From Candidatus Aenigmatarchaeota archaeon (GTDB lineage: Archaea; Aenigmatarchaeota; Aenigmatarchaeia; GW2011-AR5; GCA-2688965), in the NCBI GenBank assembly GCA_043813745.1, contig JBDRKV010000048.1:1-40420 (forward strand): a stretch of 40,420 bases of DNA, written 5' to 3'. The position numbers and the translations under genes were made by a program. Of this stretch, positions 7,625-39,904 are shown piece by piece (the first letter of the stretch is position 1; every line of letters begins with the position of its first letter). The notes beneath the pieces are model-generated. The model ran no database searches. It was not told the origin of the DNA and worked only from the letters and a program-made list of their open reading frames with translations.

Positions 7625-8923
7625 TTAAAACCAAGCGCGCAGCGTCCGCTGCTGTCTGTACGCTCCAAGCACATTGCTTGCCTTCAGCAAGCTATCAATT
7701 GATTTTTTAGTTTGCATGCGCACATGTTTCAGCGCCTCGTCTAGCGTTGCAAACGTTTCTTTATATGGAAAAATAGTAATACCGTCAGCCCCATGTTCTT
7801 TAGATTCCAAGGAGCGTTTCTTACAAGAAAAGCTGCTTCTAACGTTCTCCCTGCATTCCCACACGCCTACAGGAACAGAGTATTCAGGCATGACCTCGCG
7901 CAACACAAGCACGCTTGCCTGCCGACGAATCCTGCTTAGATATTCAGCCACAGCAAACCTTACAGCATAGTACCCGCCCTCGCAGTTGCTTGCATAGTTT
8001 TTGCGGCCGAAGAAGTTTTCATAGTCCGTAGACACAGCCGGCGCAGCCGTAGGATTCCATAATGAGTTTCCGTACCACAGTTCTATCAGTTCAAACGTCC
8101 ACGTACCAGGCATAAACAGTATGTAGAACTTGTTTCCAAGATATTCATTGACATATAGCTCAAATGTATTTATCGTATCAAACCTGCGTATCTCTTTGAG
8201 CATGCTCTTAGCAAGCATGTCATCCGTCGCTGTAATCGACCAGCGCGTTGGAACCAGTTTTTTCTGCGACTTAAGCCCGAGCAAGCCTACGGAAAGTATG
8301 CGCATTAATTGGTTGACGTCAATACCATATCCATAGAGTTCGTTCATTGCTTCTACAGCTTTCAGCTCGTCGCTGACAATTTTGTCTACTTTCGTCAGCA
8401 CGTGCGGATTTTCCTCCAGCTTCACTGCTTTTAATATAGCAGGCGCTCCAATCGGCGGCGTTGTTAAATCCAGTTGCATCGCAACATAAGGCTTTTTCTT
8501 CAGAAAGAATTCCGTAGATGGCGGCTTCGCCGCCATCGCGATCTCCTGCGCTACTTCCAGCGTCTTTGTTTCCGAGCGCACGCTGGTGCGCTCGCGTGAA
8601 TGAATGAGCTGCGTGCGCGCATCCATAATGTCTTCCAAGCCATAGCTCTTTTCATACCAGAAAGTCGGCGCATCAAGCTTCCAGGCATCGCTGCTTACGC
8701 TGGCAGGAGAGAGCAGCCCGATATTAATTTCCGGATAGCCCGCGCGCCCGACAAACGGCGAAACTCCGGAAGCGTTAAAGTTTTCCTTCAGCCTGGCTAT
8801 TTCCACTTTATGCACGTTCAATCGTTCAAGTATTGGACACGGCTTGCCGCAGAGATTTTTGCCCTTACACCTTATGCATAATGTAGATATTTTCCCGAGG
8901 CTTTTCTCAAAAGGCTCTAGCAT
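7625..8923 (-). CDS. nreA: Nre-family DNA repair protein (archaeal)
   Basis: N-terminal Cys cluster CIRCKGKNLCGKPCP, and the length and overall pattern of Nre_N/Nre_C proteins as I recall them. Confidence 0.6.
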   Translation of the reverse strand: MLEPFEKSLGKISTLCIRCKGKNLCGKPCPILERLNVHKVEIARLKENFNASGVSPFVGRAGYPEINIGLLSPASVSSDAWKLDAPTFWYEKSYGLEDIMDARTQLIHSRERTSVRSETKTLEVAQEIAMAAKPPSTEFFLKKKPYVAMQLDLTTPPIGAPAILKAVKLEENPHVLTKVDKIVSDELKAVEAMNELYGYGIDVNQLMRILSVGLLGLKSQKKLVPTRWSITATDDMLAKSMLKEIRRFDTINTFELYVNEYLGNKFYILFMPGTWTFELIELWYGNSLWNPTAAPAVSTDYENFFGRKNYASNCEGGYYAVRFAVAEYLSRIRRQASVLVLREVMPEYSVPVGVWECRENVRSSFSCKKRSLESKEHGADGITIFPYKETFATLDEALKHVRMQTKKSIDSLLKASNVLGAYRQQRTLRAWF

Positions 8924-17567: not shown

Positions 17568-17603
17568 ATGAAAAATCTCAACGAAATCATAAGATTTCAG
17601 TTG
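17568..17603 (-). repeat. family A hairpin element, copy A1 (between rpl13 stop and rps9 start)
   Basis: mRNA sense: CAACTGAAATC-TTAT-GATTTCGTTG AGATTTTTCAT. Confidence 0.7.
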
Positions 17604-18379: not shown

Positions 18380-18400
18380 GCTTATGCCGGGGGTGAGATT
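18380..18400 (-). repeat. exact 21-bp duplicate of the tRNA-Leu 3' end plus trailer
   Basis: gcttatgccgggggtgagatt occurs at 18380-18400 and at 18491-18511. Confidence 0.9.
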
Positions 18401-18490
18401 ACTGGAAAAGACCGTGAGTCTTTTCAGTTCCCGACGAGCTTTGCTCAGTCGCGGATGAACTCCGTTCAAATCTTTATATTAATCCTGTGA
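18401..18490 (-). repeat. 90-nt three-hairpin insert (element X) between the two tRNA-3'-end copies
   Basis: Minus sense: TTAATAT..., then hairpins CGGA-GTTCA-TCCG, CGACTGAGC-AAA-GCTCGTCG and ACTGAAAAGAC-TCACG-GTCTTTTCCAGT. Confidence 0.7.
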
Positions 18491-18495
18491 GCTTA

Positions 18496-18664
18496 TGCCG
18501 GGGGTGAGATTTGAACTCACGAAGACACTAAGTCACAGGATTTCTTAAATCCAGGTTAATATTTTATATCAACCCACTTTTCTTTGGATTCCAAGGAGCC
18601 TTTCTTTTTAAAGAAAGGCTGCTTCTTAAGTCCTGCCCCGTTGACCAGACTTGGGTACCCCGGC
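18496..18664 (-). tRNA. tRNA-Leu(UAA) with an 83-nt intron (exons 18664-18625 and 18541-18496)
   Basis: Hand-folded. Acceptor GCCGGGG/CCCCGGC, anticodon stem CAGGA/TCCTG, loop CTTAAGA, variable arm GACTTAGTGTC, T arm GTGAG-TTCAAAT-CTCAC, discriminator A. No CCA is encoded. Confidence 0.85.
18542..18624 (-). repeat. family B element, copy B1 (the tRNA-Leu intron)
   Basis: Near-identical to 39692-39763 over about 70 nt: GAAGCAGCCTTTCTTT..AAAGAAAGGCTCCTTGGAATCCAAAGAAA...GGTTGATA.AAAATATTAA. Confidence 0.85.
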
Positions 18665-18724: not shown

Positions 18725-18754
18725 GTTTTCCGCAAGCCATGTTTTAAAGGGCTT
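18725..18754. repeat. family E partial copy (3' half)
   Basis: GTTTTCCGCAAGCCATGTTTTAAAGGGCTT. Confidence 0.55.
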
Positions 18755-18760
18755 GGTTGG

Positions 18761-18827
18761 GGTTTCCAAGGGATACATGGATACGAAGTATCCGTGGTTT
18801 TTCCGCAAGCGCTTTCCTAAAGGGCTT
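18761..18827. repeat. family E element, copy E1 (between rpoD stop and tRNA-Leu promoter)
   Basis: GGTTTCCAAGGGAT-[CATGGATAC GAA GTATCCGTG]-GTTTTTCCGCAAGCGCTTTCCTAAAGGGCTT. Confidence 0.8.
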
Positions 18828-19611
18828 ATTTAACACTTTTCTTCAGTTCTTTCTCGAACTCTTTGGCATCCGCCTTCATACCATCCAGCGCTGCCATCAG
18901 GACGTATTCAATGGGCTTGCCGGATATGCTCTCGGCTGTAAACAAAAATTTGCTGTCGTCTCCGCTGACTTTCGTCGCGCCGGATGCAACGCATTTCATA
19001 CACATGTTGCAGCGGTCGTTGTTCGTGACAACTATCTTCCCGTCTCTTTTTGAAAAGACATTTTTAGGGCACATGCTCATCGCTTCCTCGGGTTCGCCCT
19101 CGTCTGTGAGCGACACTTTTGGGTTGTATTTGTACCCGACCACAGCTGCCTGGTGCTTTGCATGCGAGCTGCCACAGCCGAGTTCTGCAGTTGCTTCGAA
19201 CTTTATCTGCTGCCCTTCAAGCAGTTCTATTATCGGCACGCCTGCAGCAGCCGGCTTGACGCTGCCGTCAGTTGATTTCATGTCCTCTCCATGCACAATG
19301 CACGGCCCGGTTTTATCTAGCACGAGCGTAACCTGGCAATGACTGCAACCATCCTTACATTTGCACTTGTCACGTTGTTTGAAAACCTTTTCATCAAACG
19401 TCAATGGTATCAAACCTAATCTGTGCGCTATGATCTCGTCGAATAAGCCTGAATTGTTTTTTTCGAAATAAACCTCTTTAATCGCCATCGTGGACACGCC
19501 TGTCATCATGTAACGCCTCAATGCATTTGCAAAAGCAGGATTACTCTCCTCCAGTACAAATGTCATCTTCTCTTTGGACTTTTTTTGCACATGTATTTTC
19601 ATAAAAATCAT
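18826..19611 (-). CDS. rpoD: DNA-directed RNA polymerase subunit D (Rpo3) with ferredoxin-like Cys cluster
   Basis: AFANALRRYM, GLIPL, Cys clusters CKCKDGCSHC and CNMCMKCV. It sits in the canonical S13-S4-S11-RpoD order. Confidence 0.9.
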   Translation of the reverse strand: MIFMKIHVQKKSKEKMTFVLEESNPAFANALRRYMMTGVSTMAIKEVYFEKNNSGLFDEIIAHRLGLIPLTFDEKVFKQRDKCKCKDGCSHCQVTLVLDKTGPCIVHGEDMKSTDGSVKPAAAGVPIIELLEGQQIKFEATAELGCGSSHAKHQAAVVGYKYNPKVSLTDEGEPEEAMSMCPKNVFSKRDGKIVVTNNDRCNMCMKCVASGATKVSGDDSKFLFTAESISGKPIEYVLMAALDGMKADAKEFEKELKKSVK

Positions 19612-19614
19612 CTC

Positions 19615-19645
19615 GTTTTCCGCGAGCGCTTTCCTAAAAGTTTCA
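19615..19645. repeat. family E partial copy E3 (fills the rps11-rpoD spacer)
   Basis: GTTTTCCGCGAGCGCTTTCCTAAAAGTTTCA. Confidence 0.55.
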
Positions 19646-20038: not shown

Positions 20039-20588
20039 CCTGCTTCACCTCTTCTACGACCTTTTCTACAACAGGTTTGTCGCTTTCAGCATCTTCAACT
20101 TTTTCAACAGCCTTCTCTTTTTTAGCTGGCATTAAAACTTTAATCTTATCTTCAATGTCCCTGGTAACTATTAAACTGGGCTTGTTCGCACGTCTACTGC
20201 CAATTAGCACATGCTTATGTAATATAGCTTGTCTGGCATGCTTTATAGAGCCCGCAAGGCCCTTTTCAAATACGTATGACTGTAACCGCCTTCTGAGCAG
20301 GCTTTTCAGTTTAAGGTCCAGCACGTCATCCAGCTGCGCCTCTTTTTCAACCAGCCCAATCCTGTACAGCTTGTCAATAAGCTCCTTCTTTTTTTGCTCA
20401 TTTGTAGATGCCTGCAAGTCTCTTGCACGACCGCGTATGTTCCTAAGCATGGTCTCTGCACGCCAGAGCTCCTTCTTGCGCCTAAGCCCGAACTCGTCCA
20501 TTAGCTTGCGCTCCTCTTCCAGGCGCTCCTTGCTAAACGGGCTCTTTGGTCTGCTGTACGCCCTTCGTTGCATCTTAGGATGTCCCAT
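20028..20588 (-). CDS. rps4: ribosomal protein S4 (uS4) with acidic/Lys-rich C-terminal extension
   Basis: [18 protein letters not shown]...ELWRAE...S4 domain. An alternative ATG lies at 20597. Confidence 0.9.
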
Positions 20589-20667
20589 GTTTTTCATCTC
20601 ACTTAAATATGAAAAATCTCAACGAAATGTCAATTTCAGTTGCATGTTTTTCATCTCACTTAAATAT
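20586..20667 (-). repeat. family A copy A2 (20611-20642) flanked by an exact 25-bp direct repeat (20586-20610 and 20643-20667) containing the rps4 start
   Basis: catgtttttcatctcacttaaatat occurs twice. The core in mRNA sense is CAACTGAAAT-TGAC-ATTTCGTTG AGATTTTTC. Confidence 0.85.
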
Positions 20668-20672
20668 TAAAA

Positions 20673-22606: not shown

Positions 22607-22640
22607 CTCATTTGATTTTTAGATTTTATTATATTTATTA

Positions 22641-22679
22641 TAATATGGTCTAGACTATTCCAAGGGGAATAGGGTAGTG
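22641..22679 (+). promoter_or_regulatory. family D leader, copy D1 (5' of rps27e), single hairpin
   Basis: TAATATGGTCTAGA CTATTCC-AAGG-GGAATAG GGTAGTG. Confidence 0.65.
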
Positions 22680-23960: not shown

Positions 23961-24056
23961 TAATATGGTATATGCTCAAAGGAATGAATTCCTTTGGCAT
24001 CTCAAAGGTATTCTATGAATGCCTTTGCAGAGACTATTTCAGGAGGAATAGGGTAT
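23961..24056 (+). promoter_or_regulatory. family D leader, copy D2 (5' of the PAC2-family gene), three hairpins
   Basis: TAATATGGTATATGC..., then CAAAGGAAT-GA-ATTCCTTTG, CAAAGGTAT-TCTATGA-ATGCCTTTG, and GA CTATTTC-AGGA-GGAATAG GGTAT. Confidence 0.65.
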
Positions 24057-25870: not shown

Positions 25871-25912
25871 TAATATGGTGCTAGACTGATTCCGAAGGAA
25901 TCAGGATAGGTG
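25871..25912 (+). promoter_or_regulatory. family D leader, copy D3 (5' of the MEMO-family gene), single hairpin
   Basis: TAATATGGTGCTAGA CTGATTCC-GAA-GGAATCAG GATAGGTG. Confidence 0.65.
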
Positions 25913-25918
25913 TCTTAT

Positions 25919-26707
25919 ATGAGAGCACTTGGTTTCTATCCTGTCGACCCGGAAAAGCTGGAAAAGCAAGTAACGTCTTTTCTAGAACAAGACGTCAAGC
26001 CCGTGCAGGATGCACTGGGCGCAATCGTTCCGCACGCAGGCTACCCTTTCTCAGGCATGCTTGCTGCGAAAACGTTGAAGGCTGCGAAAACCAAGAATCA
26101 TCGTTTCATAATCATGGGTCCGAACCACATGGGACACGACACGCTGATAGATAATGGAGAATGGCGCACGCCATTGGACAAGTTGAAGTTGGACAACGAC
26201 TTCATAAAGAAATTGAATATCAAACAAGATTCGACGTTAGAACATAGCATTGAAGTCCAGCTGCCCATATTGCAGAAACTATACAACGACTTTAGTTTTG
26301 TTCCATTAGTTGTAGGTCCGAACACCTTCGACGAACTAAAGCAGCTTGCAAAGCAGCTGATGACAAGCGACCATTTCTATATAGCAAGCAGCGATTTCAT
26401 CCATTTCGGCCCGAACTACAACTACGTGCCTTCTGAAGCCGGTCCAGGCCAGCAGGACCAGCTGAAATGGGTCAAGAACATTGACCGAAAGCTTGCAGAA
26501 TTAATATGCAATCTGAAAGCAAAAGAATTTTTTGAAGAAATCGAGAAAAAAGAGTATACAGTGTGCGGCTACCGCGCAATAACGCTCTTCATGCTGCTCA
26601 TGGAAAAGCTCGGAGCCAAGCAGGGCCAGACAATCGACTACGCAACAAGTTACGACGTTTACCCAAATCACTCCTTTGTTTCGTACGTGGGTTTCGTGTT
26701 TAGTTAG
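25919..26707 (+). CDS. MEMO1-family protein (AmmeMemoRadiSam system protein B)
   Basis: GAIVPHAGYPFSG, IIMGPNH and SSDFIHFG. Confidence 0.8.
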   Translation: MRALGFYPVDPEKLEKQVTSFLEQDVKPVQDALGAIVPHAGYPFSGMLAAKTLKAAKTKNHRFIIMGPNHMGHDTLIDNGEWRTPLDKLKLDNDFIKKLNIKQDSTLEHSIEVQLPILQKLYNDFSFVPLVVGPNTFDELKQLAKQLMTSDHFYIASSDFIHFGPNYNYVPSEAGPGQQDQLKWVKNIDRKLAELICNLKAKEFFEEIEKKEYTVCGYRAITLFMLLMEKLGAKQGQTIDYATSYDVYPNHSFVSYVGFVFS

Positions 26708-26770
26708 GGTTTCCAAGGGATTGTGCGCTGCGAAGCACGCACGTTTTCCGCAAGCGCTTTCTTAAAGGGC
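26708..26770. repeat. family E element, copy E2 (after the MEMO-family gene)
   Basis: GGTTTCCAAGGGAT-[GTGCGCTGC GAA GCACGCAC]-GTTTTCCGCAAGCGCTTTCTTAAAGGGC. Confidence 0.8.
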
Positions 26771-26819
26771 TTACCCAAATCACTCCTTTGTTTCGTACGT
26801 GGGTTTCGTTTTCAGTTAA
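26771..26819 (+). pseudogene. duplicate of the last 15 codons plus stop of the MEMO-family gene
   Basis: 49 bp, 46/49 identical to 26659-26707. All three differences are at third codon positions (GTG/GTT, TTT/TTC, TAG/TAA). Confidence 0.85.
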
Positions 26820-27346
26820 TTCTTTTTCTGCTTCCACAACAAATATCCAAACCCAACGAACGATACAATAATCAGTATAACGCCGATGATTAACTCAGCT
26901 GGCAATGTGGTAGTTATGGGTTGTGCAACAGTCGTTGTCGTCTGGTTGCCGGCACCAGCCACAGTAGCAAGTTTCTCAGCAGCCTGGTCGCGTGTTGCAG
27001 ACGCTGCAGCATATAACGCAGATTTTGTCGTCTGATACACGCCGACAATCAATGCAATCGCAGAAAGCGACAGCGTTATCACGAATGAATAGAACTTCGG
27101 CTTGAACAGCTTTGTGCCAGTGGACGTCAGAGTGTAGTATTTCCACTTGTTGCCATTTTCCTTCCTGACAACGATTCCGCTCTTCTCTAAGACACTCAAA
27201 TGTTCGGTTACAGTCGTTACATGCTTGCCCAGCTTGCCGGCAAGCTCAGAAGCCGTATACGGCCGTTCGTTTAAAAGCTTAGCAATTTCTTGGCGTGTTT
27301 CGTTGGAAAGCGCCTTGAACGACTCCTTATTCAATACCTCTGGCAT
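26816..27346 (-). CDS. ArsR-type winged-helix regulator fused to C-terminal transmembrane segments
   Basis: FKALSNETRQEIAKLL...YTASELAGKLGKHVTTVTEHLSVLEKSGIV, followed by two hydrophobic helices. Confidence 0.65.
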   Translation of the reverse strand: MPEVLNKESFKALSNETRQEIAKLLNERPYTASELAGKLGKHVTTVTEHLSVLEKSGIVVRKENGNKWKYYTLTSTGTKLFKPKFYSFVITLSLSAIALIVGVYQTTKSALYAAASATRDQAAEKLATVAGAGNQTTTTVAQPITTTLPAELIIGVILIIVSFVGFGYLLWKQKKN

Positions 27347-27405: not shown

Positions 27406-27507
27406 TTAATATGGTCTATCTGAGAAGGTATCATTTAGATACCTTCTAGATTTTGAAGACATCCGAGATGTCTTCACAAAGACTGATGCAAAAGCATCAG
27501 GGTAGGG
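27406..27507 (+). promoter_or_regulatory. family D leader, copy D4 (5' of tRNA-Ser), three hairpins
   Basis: TTAATATGGTCTATCTG, AGAAGGTATC-ATTTA-GATACCTTCT, AGATTTT, GAAGACATC-CGA-GATGTCTTC, ACAAAGA, CTGATGC-AAAA-GCATCAG, GGTAGGG. Confidence 0.7.
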
Positions 27508-27547
27508 TTTGTCGTTTTTAAATGATGCTTGATAAAAAATCTAACAT

Positions 27548-27693: not shown

Positions 27694-27794
27694 TAATATG
27701 ATCTATCTGAAAAGGCTTTCAAAGAAAGCCTTTTAGATTTGGAAGACATCTTTGATGTCTTCACAAAGACTGTTCTAAGAAGAACAGGGTAGTG
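27694..27794 (+). promoter_or_regulatory. family D leader, copy D5 (5' of rpl10e), three hairpins
   Basis: TAATATGATCTATCTG, AAAAGGCTTTC-AAA-GAAAGCCTTTT, AGATTTG, GAAGACATC-TTT-GATGTCTTC, ACAAAGA, CTGTTCT-AAGA-AGAACAG, GGTAGTG. Confidence 0.7.
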
Positions 27795-27801
27795 ATTCAA
27801 A

Positions 27802-30202: not shown

Positions 30203-30224
30203 CTGAATTACCTCTATATTGAAG

Positions 30225-30264
30225 ATGAAAATCTCAGCGAACTTGTTCAGCTGAAGATTTTCAT
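30225..30264 (-). repeat. family A copy A3 (5' of rpl44e)
   Basis: mRNA sense: ATGAAAATCTT CAGCTGAAC-AA-GTTCGCTG AGATTTTCAT. The stem base pairs differ from A1/A2 in a compensated way. Confidence 0.7.
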
Positions 30265-32381: not shown

Positions 32382-33785
32382 TTAAACACTACCATGCATC
32401 CTGCCATAATGCCTGTTCAGCGACTTCATGTTGGAAAACGCCTTGTCGCACTTGTTGCACTTGTAGACGTTTCCAAGCGCAGCGTCATCTTTTTGTTTCT
32501 CCAGGCGTGATTCGAACTTCTTGAACGGGTATGTTATGGGATTCCTTATTTTCCTGCTTATGCACATCTCATCCGGCCTGCAAATGCCGTTGCCAATAGA
32601 TTTGTAGAAAGCCTCGTTGTAGCAGTTTGCGGGCAGCGTCTCGCCGCCGACATGATATCGCAACTGCCCTATCAGAAGCGAGCGCGGCAGCGGCCGCGGA
32701 TTATTTTCATTCCATTGCTGCACGCGTTCTATGATTTCCTCGGTAGTCCAATTCATCCGATTCAGGAAGTTTATGAGCGTGAACATTGAGCGCTTTCTGC
32801 CGTCAGCCAGACCGTTTAGGATTAGTTTGATGCAAGGCGGAAAGTCGCTTTCCAGCATCTTTTGTGTAATGGGATTTCTAGGAACTTTCTTCACGACTTT
32901 TATTTCCTCTTTCTTCTGGCGCGCATTCCAGTCTATGGCATCCAAAAGCAGGTTTTCTATTTCAACGTCGTCAGTGCTTTTGAAAAAGGGAGTTTTCAAA
33001 TGTCTTCCAACATGTTCTGGCAGCGCCATTATCATATCAAATGCTTCAAGCGTTTGTTTTGTTAGAGGAATCGATGCTAGCCACTTCTTCTCATTCAAGG
33101 AGAAAGGCGCGCGAAACATGTGTCTGTTGCTCCACCCGCGCTCCAGGTCAACGAAATAGAACGGCTCAAGCGTGCTGGCAGGCTCGTCCAACAAATCGCT
33201 TAGCTTTTTGTATGTTTTCAGCTTGATGAGCGCATGCATCAATGATTCGCTTATTTCGTTTGCAATGAAATTAGCCAGAATTTTCGGTATCTCCGGGTAT
33301 CGTTTTGCCGTAGGTTTATAATCTATCTCCTTTGGAAAAGCATTCCACGGAATAACCAAGTGAAAGCCTCTTGAGCCAGAAAACTTCATGCCGTAATTCT
33401 TAATCCCGTATTTTTCAAACAGCCGCAAAATTTCCAAAGCACAGGCCTTTGCGCCGTCTATGCCTATCTTACTGTCCATGTCCAGGACAAAATCAAATCC
33501 AGTGCGCAGCTCGTTTTGTTTCTCCTGCGTCGCGCTGGCTAACATCATCGCATTGCTCCATCTTTCAACGCTAAAGTGAAACGAAGTTATCCCTTTGTTA
33601 GCCATATTTTTGATGTCGCTCGCGTACTGAACGATATTAGGCCGCTTGTCGTAGCGTCCGTCCCAGTACGCGCCAGCAACCTCTCGCTCTTGCGCGTCCG
33701 CAACCATCCGGTTAAGCAGCTCTTCGTTGTTGTAATATTGCGCGACCTGCTGCATGTTTAGCGGTTTCGGCGTGAAAGTAGACAT
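32382..33785 (-). CDS. priS: DNA primase: PriS catalytic domain fused to PriL-CTD-like Fe-S domain and a C-terminal C2H2 zinc finger
   Basis: FDFVLDMDS and FSGSRGFHLVI (AEP motifs). FPPCIKLILNG...RSMFTLINFL plus three later Cys (PriL-CTD pattern). YKCNKCDKAFSNMKSLNRHYGRMH. The TATA-like TTAAAAAATATAAG fits ATG 33785. Confidence 0.8.
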   Translation of the reverse strand: MSTFTPKPLNMQQVAQYYNNEELLNRMVADAQEREVAGAYWDGRYDKRPNIVQYASDIKNMANKGITSFHFSVERWSNAMMLASATQEKQNELRTGFDFVLDMDSKIGIDGAKACALEILRLFEKYGIKNYGMKFSGSRGFHLVIPWNAFPKEIDYKPTAKRYPEIPKILANFIANEISESLMHALIKLKTYKKLSDLLDEPASTLEPFYFVDLERGWSNRHMFRAPFSLNEKKWLASIPLTKQTLEAFDMIMALPEHVGRHLKTPFFKSTDDVEIENLLLDAIDWNARQKKEEIKVVKKVPRNPITQKMLESDFPPCIKLILNGLADGRKRSMFTLINFLNRMNWTTEEIIERVQQWNENNPRPLPRSLLIGQLRYHVGGETLPANCYNEAFYKSIGNGICRPDEMCISRKIRNPITYPFKKFESRLEKQKDDAALGNVYKCNKCDKAFSNMKSLNRHYGRMHGSV

Positions 33786-33836
33786 ATGACCACAGATAGA
33801 TTTGCACTTATATTTTTTAATAATCAATAAATTTCT

Positions 33837-38946: not shown

Positions 38947-39678
38947 CTAAAAATTCTCCTGTATGAACCGTTCCAGATAGATTAGTTCATTCGGATTTCC
39001 GAACGGTACCCAATAACTCTTCGCCGGCACGATGCGAACTTTGTGCGCATCTGCGAGCAGCTGCACAGCAGACGTGATTTCGTATTCTCCGCGCTCTGAG
39101 CGTTTTATTTTTTTCAGCGCCTCAAAGATGTCAGGCGTGAACTTCCACAAGTTCGCGTTAACAAGCTTGTCTTGATAGAACTCCTTGATCTCACCAGCAG
39201 ACGGCTTTTCAACAATCCTGCGCAGCCATCCCTGCTGGTCTGTCGAAAGTACAGCGTATTTTGTGGGGTCCATTGCACGATAGCCCATGCCATAGCAAAC
39301 GTCGTCGTTAATAACTTTCTTGAACCGAGCCATGTCATCCGGCGAATACAAGTCATCGCCGTTGACCATTACAAAGTTTTGCCCGGCAACGAAGTCTTCC
39401 GCAGCTTTCACAGCATCGCCTGTGCCTCTTGGCTCTGGCTGGTTGATGAAAGATATTTTCATGTCAAAATAGTGCTTGTTCTTCTTTACCCAGTCCTCCA
39501 TCATTTCTTTCTTGTAATTTACAACAATGCCCACGTCAGTCGCGCCGGCAGTCTTAAGGTTGTGTAGTAACCAATATAGGAACGGCTTGCCGGCTACAGG
39601 TATGAGCGGCTTTGGTATCGTAGCCGTAAGAGGCATCATGCGCGTGCCCTTTCCAGCAGCTAAGAGAACGACTTTCAT
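38947..39678 (-). CDS. sugar-phosphate nucleotidyltransferase (RfbA/GlmU N-domain-like)
   Basis: MKVVLLAAGKGTRMMPLTATIPKPLIPVAGKP. Confidence 0.8.
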   Translation of the reverse strand: MKVVLLAAGKGTRMMPLTATIPKPLIPVAGKPFLYWLLHNLKTAGATDVGIVVNYKKEMMEDWVKKNKHYFDMKISFINQPEPRGTGDAVKAAEDFVAGQNFVMVNGDDLYSPDDMARFKKVINDDVCYGMGYRAMDPTKYAVLSTDQQGWLRRIVEKPSAGEIKEFYQDKLVNANLWKFTPDIFEALKKIKRSERGEYEITSAVQLLADAHKVRIVPAKSYWVPFGNPNELIYLERFIQENF

Positions 39679-39763
39679 TGAAAAAAACCTTCCTTAATAT
39701 TTTGTATCAACCATATGTTTCTTTGGATTCCAAGGAGCCTTTCTTTACAAAGAAAGGCTGCTT
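39679..39763 (-). repeat. family B element, copy B2 (immediately 5' of the nucleotidyltransferase ATG)
   Basis: Same core as B1. Its 3' end supplies AATATTAAGGAAGGTTTTTTTCA just before the ATG. Confidence 0.85.
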
Positions 39764-39788
39764 CTGCAGCTAAGAGGACTATTTTCAT
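39764..39788 (-). pseudogene. relic duplicate of the first 25 nt of the nucleotidyltransferase gene
   Basis: ATGAAAATAGTCCTCTTAGCTGCAG versus the gene's ATGAAAGTCGTTCTCTTAGCTGCTG, which is 21/25 identical. Confidence 0.75.
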
Positions 39789-39835
39789 ATTTTCATCTCC
39801 GATGAAAATCTCAACGAATGCAATGCATTCAGTTG
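39789..39835 (-). repeat. family A copy A4 (upstream of the relic nucleotidyltransferase start)
   Basis: mRNA sense: CAACTGAATGC-ATT-GCATTCGTTG AGATTTTCAT CGGAG ATGAAAAT. Confidence 0.7.
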
Positions 39836-39904
39836 CAGATCATCACTCTGCAATTATTCGATGAAAAATTTAAATAGATTTAATTAAGCTCTTAATTAAA
39901 TATA

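Follow-up and report, generated by a model that had tools for sequence, protein, structure and literature searches.

Duplication of the 3' end of a gene is the classic footprint of integrative elements. Transposases set target duplications of a fixed length, between 2 and 15 bp. In template switching or homology-facilitated illegitimate recombination, a copied stretch is inserted, 1–4 nt are shared at the junctions, a local duplication results if synthesis re-enters upstream, and base changes lie near the junction. We know of no prokaryotic transposition system for which variable target duplications of 21–49 bp are typical, and, to our knowledge, microhomology-mediated template switching is undemonstrated in DPANN archaea. 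Sequence sharing among promoter segments has been described in 'Promoter reuse in prokaryotes' (PMC3575422), chiefly for bacteria and in many cases in connection with IS elements.

The locus compared here with these systems lies in a 40,420-nt contig (JBDRKV010000048.1) from a Candidatus Aenigmatarchaeota archaeon of the DPANN group; the whole of this stretch was analyzed and is called the window. The gene concerned encodes a Memo-family protein and is the last in a run of RpoK, S2 and Memo. Its ATG at 25919 is preceded by a Shine–Dalgarno-like GGATAGGTG, and its homologues are all at or below 53% identity, the best named ones being proteins of Aenigmatarchaeota MAGs. The parts of the locus that are needed first are the following:

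25919..26707, plus strand: Memo-family gene (AmmeMemoRadiSam system protein B), 262 aa; Pfam Memo, 1e-48
26659..26707, plus strand: copy A (proximal), the last 15 codons and the TAG stop of Memo, TTACCCAAATCACTCCTTTGTTTCGTACGTGGGTTTCGTGTTTAGTTAG, in frame with the Memo reading frame
26771..26819, plus strand: copy A' (distal), read as a relic of the Memo 3' end, identical to A at 46 of 49 positions
26816..27346, minus strand: ArsR-type HTH gene with a C-terminal membrane anchor, convergent to Memo; Pfam HTH_5, 4e-10

The duplication is real and far beyond chance. In a local dispersed-repeat scan, the A/A' pair scores 42, whereas the highest score among 20 shuffles is 15. The sequence-only reading had reported a 49-bp repeat of the Memo end around a 63-nt element, here called E2, with differences at third codon positions only; both observations are borne out. 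The first 39 nt are the same in the two copies. The differences are G/T at 26698/26810, T/C at 26701/26813 and G/A at 26707/26819, giving codon pairs GTG/GTT, TTT/TTC and TAG/TAA (three of three at third positions), and both copies translate to YPNHSFVSYVGFVFS and a stop. The frame of A' is closed upstream by a TAA at 26763-26765, and A' is not within a longer ORF. The stop codon of the ArsR gene (26816-26818) falls inside A', which overlaps that gene by 4 nt (TTAA).

The insert between the two copies belongs to a small repeat family, of which the 40 kb holds two full and two partial copies:

26708..26721, plus strand: E2 5' box, GGTTTCCAAGGGAT, identical in E1; two exact matches in the window versus a shuffle mean of 0.2
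26722..26743, plus strand: E2 GC-rich hairpin from fold prediction, with 9 pairs, one bulge and a GAA loop
26744..26773, minus strand: E2 3' box, reading TAAGCCCTTTAAGAAAGCGCTTGCGGAAAA on that strand, with a TATA-like box and a quasi-palindromic GC core
18726..18755, plus strand: E0, a solo 3' box directly after the stop of RpoD (a minus-strand gene) and upstream of tRNA-Leu
18760..18828, plus strand: E1, the other full copy, between RpoD and tRNA-Leu, with its 3' box at 18799-18828
19616..19645, minus strand: solo 3' box in the gap that separates the S11 stop from the RpoD start, with the ATG 29 nt downstream of its TATA-like part

E2 itself spans 26708-26770, and its whole sequence is unique in the window. 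The exact 5' box common to E1 and E2 amounts to 14–15 nt. Nearly every stem position differs between their hairpins, but the 9-pair stem and the GAA loop are kept. The 3' box extends over 30 nt and is identical to that of E1 at 29 of them; on the plus strand, it reads as a T-run and then a second small hairpin, and its core is a quasi-palindrome in which TTTCCGCAAGC meets GCTTTCTTAAA. The family has no terminal inverted repeats, the only palindromes being internal (the hairpin and the 3'-box dyad), and its termini, TTTCCAAGGG and TTTCTTAAAGGG, resemble each other as imperfect direct repeats. With E0 and E1, the 3' box occurs twice at a spacing of 73 nt. E1 has no flanking gene-end duplication, its left neighbor being a solo 3' box.

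No known noncoding RNA was recognized in E with Rfam, which gives no match over E2 at E-values up to 10 and only chance-level matches over E1. A 3'-box search of genome and metagenome contig collections returned no sister contig of the window; the true relatives of the box in these collections are in two loci only (L003 and L010). Viral sequence scans gave no matches.

The junctions of E2 with the two copies leave a few bases that either partner could claim. At the right junction, TTA likewise closes the E family sequence; E1 ends in GGGCTTA as well. At the left junction, E1 reads GTTGGGGTTTCC and E2 reads GTTAGGGTTTCC, that is, GTTG followed by GGGTTTCC versus GTTA followed by GGGTTTCC, and the element may begin with G26707, which would turn TA into the stop TAG. 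With the G on the left and the TTA on the right ambiguous, the duplication proper measures 46–49 nt. Since the TAG/TAA pair sits exactly on the junction, one of the three silent differences is perhaps a junction effect.

Under random substitution, the chance that all changes are synonymous is 0.009 for three differences and 0.045 for two. All of the differences fall in the last 10 of the 49 positions, for which the chance with three differences is 0.0065; p for the clustering is put at about 0.007–0.03. In an alignment of 17 Memo homologues, the last 15 residues are conserved, with Ser, Val and Tyr showing little or no variation, and every one of the 17 proteins stops at the same residue. Since the proximal copy encodes this conserved C-terminus, only silent changes can survive there. 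The best reading is that the proximal copy is the working Memo tail and the distal copy a relic. The silent-only divergence had been taken as a sign of a foreign allele; that step is unnecessary, because the conserved tail permits only silent changes and the TAG/TAA difference lies on the junction. That the final 9 nt of A resemble the left flank of E1 (6/9, versus 4/9 for A') was given no weight, as the chance of this is about 0.16.

The distal copy had also been proposed to mark the ancestral gene end. This is plausible in that the convergent gene pairs of the window overlap by 23, 17 and 11 nt or, in one case, are separated by a 1-nt gap; overlap or abutment is thus normal here, and an ancestral overlap of Memo with ArsR fits the pattern. 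The nearest relative, at 53% identity (L013), adds no support. That locus has the same Memo/ArsR synteny, but its spacer is a plain, AT-rich 116 nt, uninformative about so recent an event, and the genes do not overlap, so that the relic is the one source from which we infer an overlapping ancestral state. Elsewhere in the window, a 481-aa ORF at 32382-33827 on the minus strand matches both the small- and the large-subunit primase domain and appears to be a fused PriS-PriL primase.

The Memo tail is one of four places in the window where a gene boundary is repeated across a short insert. The other three are:

39656..39788, minus strand: gene-start scar of an NTP-transferase (nucleotidyltransferase), working copy 39656-39678, relic 39766-39788
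18380..18511, minus strand: tRNA-Leu 3'-end scar, real end 18491-18511, relic 18380-18400
20586..20672, minus strand: S4 gene-start scar, a 30-nt repeat that includes the S4 start and its proximal promoter

At the NTP-transferase, the first 23 nt of the gene are repeated with 20/23 identical at a spacing of 110, and the 87-nt insert holds a hairpin element of a second family, D1, together with a TATA-like AAAATATTAA. At tRNA-Leu, a 21-nt repeat (the 3' end and 5 trailing nt) is identical at 21/21 positions with a spacing of 111, and the minus-strand reading of the 90-nt insert opens with TATAAAGATTT. At S4, the repeats are 29/30 identical and spaced by 57 nt, and the 27-nt insert is the upstream half of a promoter motif, F. 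The inserts thus differ among these three scars, and each has a TATA-like box pointing along the minus strand. The sequence-only reading had tied duplicated gene ends to family E; within the window, that link holds at E2 but not at E1, which lacks a duplication, nor at the scars just listed, which have duplications around non-E inserts.

In three of the four cases, the start-to-start spacing is nearly the same, at 112, 111 and 110 nt (26659/26771, 18380/18491 and 39656/39766), although the repeats measure 49, 21 and 23 nt and the inserts 63, 90 and 87 nt. A distance of 110–112 nt is about the length of one archaeal Okazaki fragment. The near-constant spacing could be a coincidence, the sign of a unit-length insertion process, or a technical constant. 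In about 109 kb of other loci, of which the archaeal ones are mostly DPANN, there are no comparable local dispersed repeats, and these cassettes are absent from L013. Cassettes and scars alike are therefore peculiar either to this lineage or to this assembly.

Copies of D1 lie within genes as well as at a gene boundary. A tRNA-Leu(TAA) at 18496-18664 on the minus strand is found by ARAGORN when introns are allowed, and is found neither by default ARAGORN nor by Rfam. Its intron is 83 nt long, lies at position 38/39, and consists of a D1 hairpin/TATA element and 11 nt that imperfectly repeat the anticodon loop (GGAYTTAAGAA); it has the look of an intron that arose when a repeat element was inserted. 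Another D1 copy, at 7795-7842, sits in frame within the Nre DNA-repair gene (7625..8923, minus strand), where it adds about 20 residues (KRSLESKEHGADG...) that are absent from nine homologues, and interrupts the Nre_C domain match. The best Nre homologue is 57% identical and, as with Memo, the protein collections contain no close strain. This Nre insertion was not counted as an empty-site case for D1, because its candidate flanking repeat belongs to the D1 hairpin. The length of the target duplication is accordingly variable within a family: E2 has 46–49 bp and E1 none, and D1 is flanked by repeats of 11 bp, 23 bp or none.

The promoter-like side of these elements can be compared with the window's own genes. 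Among about 45 gene upstream regions of 60 nt each, most have YTTTAAAG at 25–31 nt before the ATG, a placement that is the pattern of archaeal leaderless promoters. The 3' box of E, read on the minus strand (GCCCTTTAAGAAAGCGCTTGCGGAAAA; CCCTTTAAGAAAG), fits both this consensus and its spacing, and the same box stands 29 nt before the RpoD ATG. At E2 itself, there is no gene downstream of the minus-strand TATA-like box. A 26-nt stretch of the box recurs outside the window:

19616-19645, 18726-18755, 18799-18828 and 26744-26773 in the window, 4333-4359 in L003 and 4076-4103 in L010: 26-nt quasi-palindromic box TTTCCGCRAGCGCTTTCCTAAAGGGC, by sequence match

A Woesearchaeota MAG has a near-identical 26-nt box upstream of RpoK, and a DPANN contig from Hainich groundwater has one upstream of a gene. 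The box is conserved far beyond an ordinary promoter and so may serve a shared regulator as an operator beside genes for RNA polymerase subunits.

Read along the plus strand, E shows a hairpin and then T4–T5. The E1 hairpin, with 9 pairs and T5, was flagged as terminator-like, and there is no plus-strand gene upstream of it. The E2 hairpin stands 14 nt after the Memo stop, is followed by T4 only, and was unflagged in the terminator scan. E is best described as a putative promoter/hairpin cassette, its activity being a prediction from motifs and folds, and it is possibly a two-faced terminator/promoter unit.

Three other repeated modules of the window were noted along the way. The F motif (CAACTGAA..TTCGTTGAGATTTTTCAT) occurs at 20611-20645, 39804-39838, 17568-17587 and 30224-30241 and is a promoter-like module common to the upstream regions of S4, S9, L44e and the NTP-transferase. 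A further cassette family, R/D8 (TAATATGG ... AGACT, a hairpin, GGGTAG), is found at 27407-27510, 27694-27797, 22640-22676, 24031-24056 and 25871-25913; copies lie directly 5' of the S27e, PAC2, Memo and L10e genes, and two copies of 104 nt flank tRNA-Ser. The R/D8 hairpins have compensatory changes between copies, a sign that they may form a structured 5' leader in common. Finally, the octamer TTCCAAGG has all six of its occurrences on the plus strand (7805, 18589, 18764, 22658, 26711 and 39728), with 1.2 expected, and each adjoins or sits in a hairpin regardless of the orientation of the neighboring genes.

We lean, with some reserve, toward the explanation that a lineage-specific promoter/hairpin cassette was inserted at the end of Memo with a long target duplication. 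The order of events and the mechanism that we infer would be as follows. In the ancestral state, Memo and the convergent ArsR-type gene would have overlapped by 4 nt (TTAA). A single insertion would then have placed the cassette within the last ~50 bp of Memo, with 46–49 bp of the target copied. The intact tail, now the proximal copy, would have stayed with Memo under purifying selection, and the dead distal copy would have stayed with ArsR. On the minus strand, E2 would supply a TATA-type promoter box and then a stable hairpin where transcription is predicted to start; in the plus-strand direction, it would place a hairpin and T-run directly after the Memo stop.

Two routes to this arrangement can be envisaged. 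In the first, a microhomology-guided copy-and-paste, synthesis would leave the Memo end, copy an E template and re-enter 48 nt upstream. In the second, nicks staggered by about 48 nt would be filled in, and an E fragment would then be joined. Because 1–3 junction bases can be shared by either partner, a template switch or a staggered-nick fill-in is favored. Because the genes are tightly packed, nearly any insertion strikes a gene, and only those duplications that rebuild a terminus would persist. Pfam scans of 42 ORFs in the window revealed no integrase, transposase or reverse transcriptase (RT) domains; with no recombinase, no terminal inverted repeats and a repeat length that varies over 21–49 nt, the marks that define site-specific integration and classical transposition are missing. 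The insertion event was most likely not a site-specific integration. The clustering of the A/A' differences at the junction is unexplained by plain decay and could reflect error-prone synthesis, a junction effect or an imported patch.

The last of these possibilities is the core of a competing explanation, which we consider unlikely. It holds that the proximal tail and E2 have a common origin in a mobile element or a diverged strain and were joined to the resident gene, so that the silent differences represent allelic divergence; the joining would have occurred by site-specific recombination at an att-like core or by homology-facilitated illegitimate recombination, with a crossover in Memo and a join at the TTA microhomology. 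The three differences are indeed silent, clustered at one end and patch-like, the TTA microhomology is present at the right junction, and the footprint classically left by integrative elements counts for this explanation too. However, the 40 kb contains no recombinase, the insert is only 63 nt, and the collections searched yielded no donor allele. One of the differences lies on the junction, and the silent changes are already accounted for by purifying selection acting on the conserved tail. A mechanism based on att sites would not lead one to expect the same scar at gene 5' ends, where it is also seen. In the more specific form given by the sequence-only reading, with the second copy as an attP-like arm, the idea is unsupported, given the want of integrase, transposase and RT in the window, the noncoding nature of the 63-nt insert, and the recurrence of the scar around unrelated inserts at two gene 5' ends and one tRNA 3' end.

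An assembly or amplification artefact, in which strain variants or chimeric molecules were stitched together to give false local duplications, is improbable in our judgment. The window is a metagenome-type contig that no second source corroborates and has unusually many local dispersed repeats, three of them spaced 110–112 nt, when the other loci, DPANN contigs included, have none. Against this, the junction between E2 and A' cannot come from a graph assembler unless it is in the reads. The repeats bracket differing structured inserts that are members of families, and spacings of 57, 73, 81 and 287 nt are also present. Furthermore, every scar keeps one intact gene end, and the relics diverge independently, by 0–3 differences.

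We find it scarcely credible that both copies are used, with the archaeal splicing endonuclease removing E2 and part of the repeat from some Memo transcripts, as D1 is removed from tRNA-Leu, and with both translated tails kept silent-only: all differences are silent, the palindrome CGTACG in the repeat lets A and A' pair in RNA, and the sister element D1 is tolerated as a tRNA intron, but 26640-26835 folds no more stably than shuffled sequence does (z = 0.07) and shows no bulge-helix-bulge geometry, the protein would be the same with or without splicing, and the A' frame is closed by a TAA just upstream.

Several candidate identities were set aside. An mRNA intron of the bulge-helix-bulge type was rejected, as its fold is no better than shuffles. 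A diversity-generating retroelement with template and variable repeats (TR/VR) was rejected since there is no RT in the window and the differences, being G/T, T/C and G/A, are not adenine-specific. A MITE was rejected for want of terminal inverted repeats and because the duplication length is not fixed. The conserved flanks, the variable hairpin and a left-end GTTAGGG brought an integron attC-like site to mind; the sequence does not fit the core-site consensus, no integrase is present, and the genes concerned belong to the housekeeping core.

Returning to insertion with a long target duplication, the Memo-tail duplication taken alone is a modest and probably neutral scar. Four scars in 40 kb suggest a recurrent insertion process and not an integrating virus or plasmid. 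We put forward only tentatively, and with more doubt than conviction, that E, D1, the 90-nt insert and F make up an undescribed class of tiny promoter-carrying hairpin cassettes that spread in this DPANN lineage by copy-and-paste with variable target duplications of 11–49 bp, the DNA gained amounting in three cases to a near-constant 110–112 nt. If the scars are real and recurrent, a compact archaeal genome with overlapping genes would be able to accept new regulatory DNA, the damaged gene end being rebuilt by duplication. Promoter reuse, in-frame palindromic protein insertions and the origin of a tRNA intron would then trace to one mini-cassette family. Such cassettes would land in gene termini, in coding sequence and in a tRNA anticodon loop without killing the gene, which would give streamlined genomes a means to rewire promoters and to gain tRNA introns.

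Among known systems, the target-site duplications of transposons and MITEs are alike in that a short noncoding member of a repeat family lies between direct repeats of the target with both genes intact. They differ in that the duplication here is 46–49 bp (21–30 bp in the other scars) and variable, and in that the element lacks terminal inverted repeats and the window lacks a transposase. The attL and attR sites of integrative elements resemble this locus in that a gene 3' end is duplicated, the gene survives, and direct repeats delimit the insert, and the tRNA-Leu repeat is similar. In contrast, the inserts here are 27–90 nt, noncoding and without an integrase, and two of the four scars duplicate gene starts. 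Template switching would account for a local duplication of this kind, with the difference that it is here deduced from four scars only. The Rickettsia palindromic elements (RPEs) have sequences unrelated to E2, which moreover is intergenic; together with archaeal tRNA introns, they find their parallel in the sister element D1, which lies in frame in Nre with 20 added residues and forms the intron of tRNA-Leu. Long target duplications and archaeal hairpin modules are not described for promoter reuse (PMC3575422), but the likeness to it is direct: near-identical promoter-bearing segments stand before unrelated genes, and here each insert has a TATA-like box.
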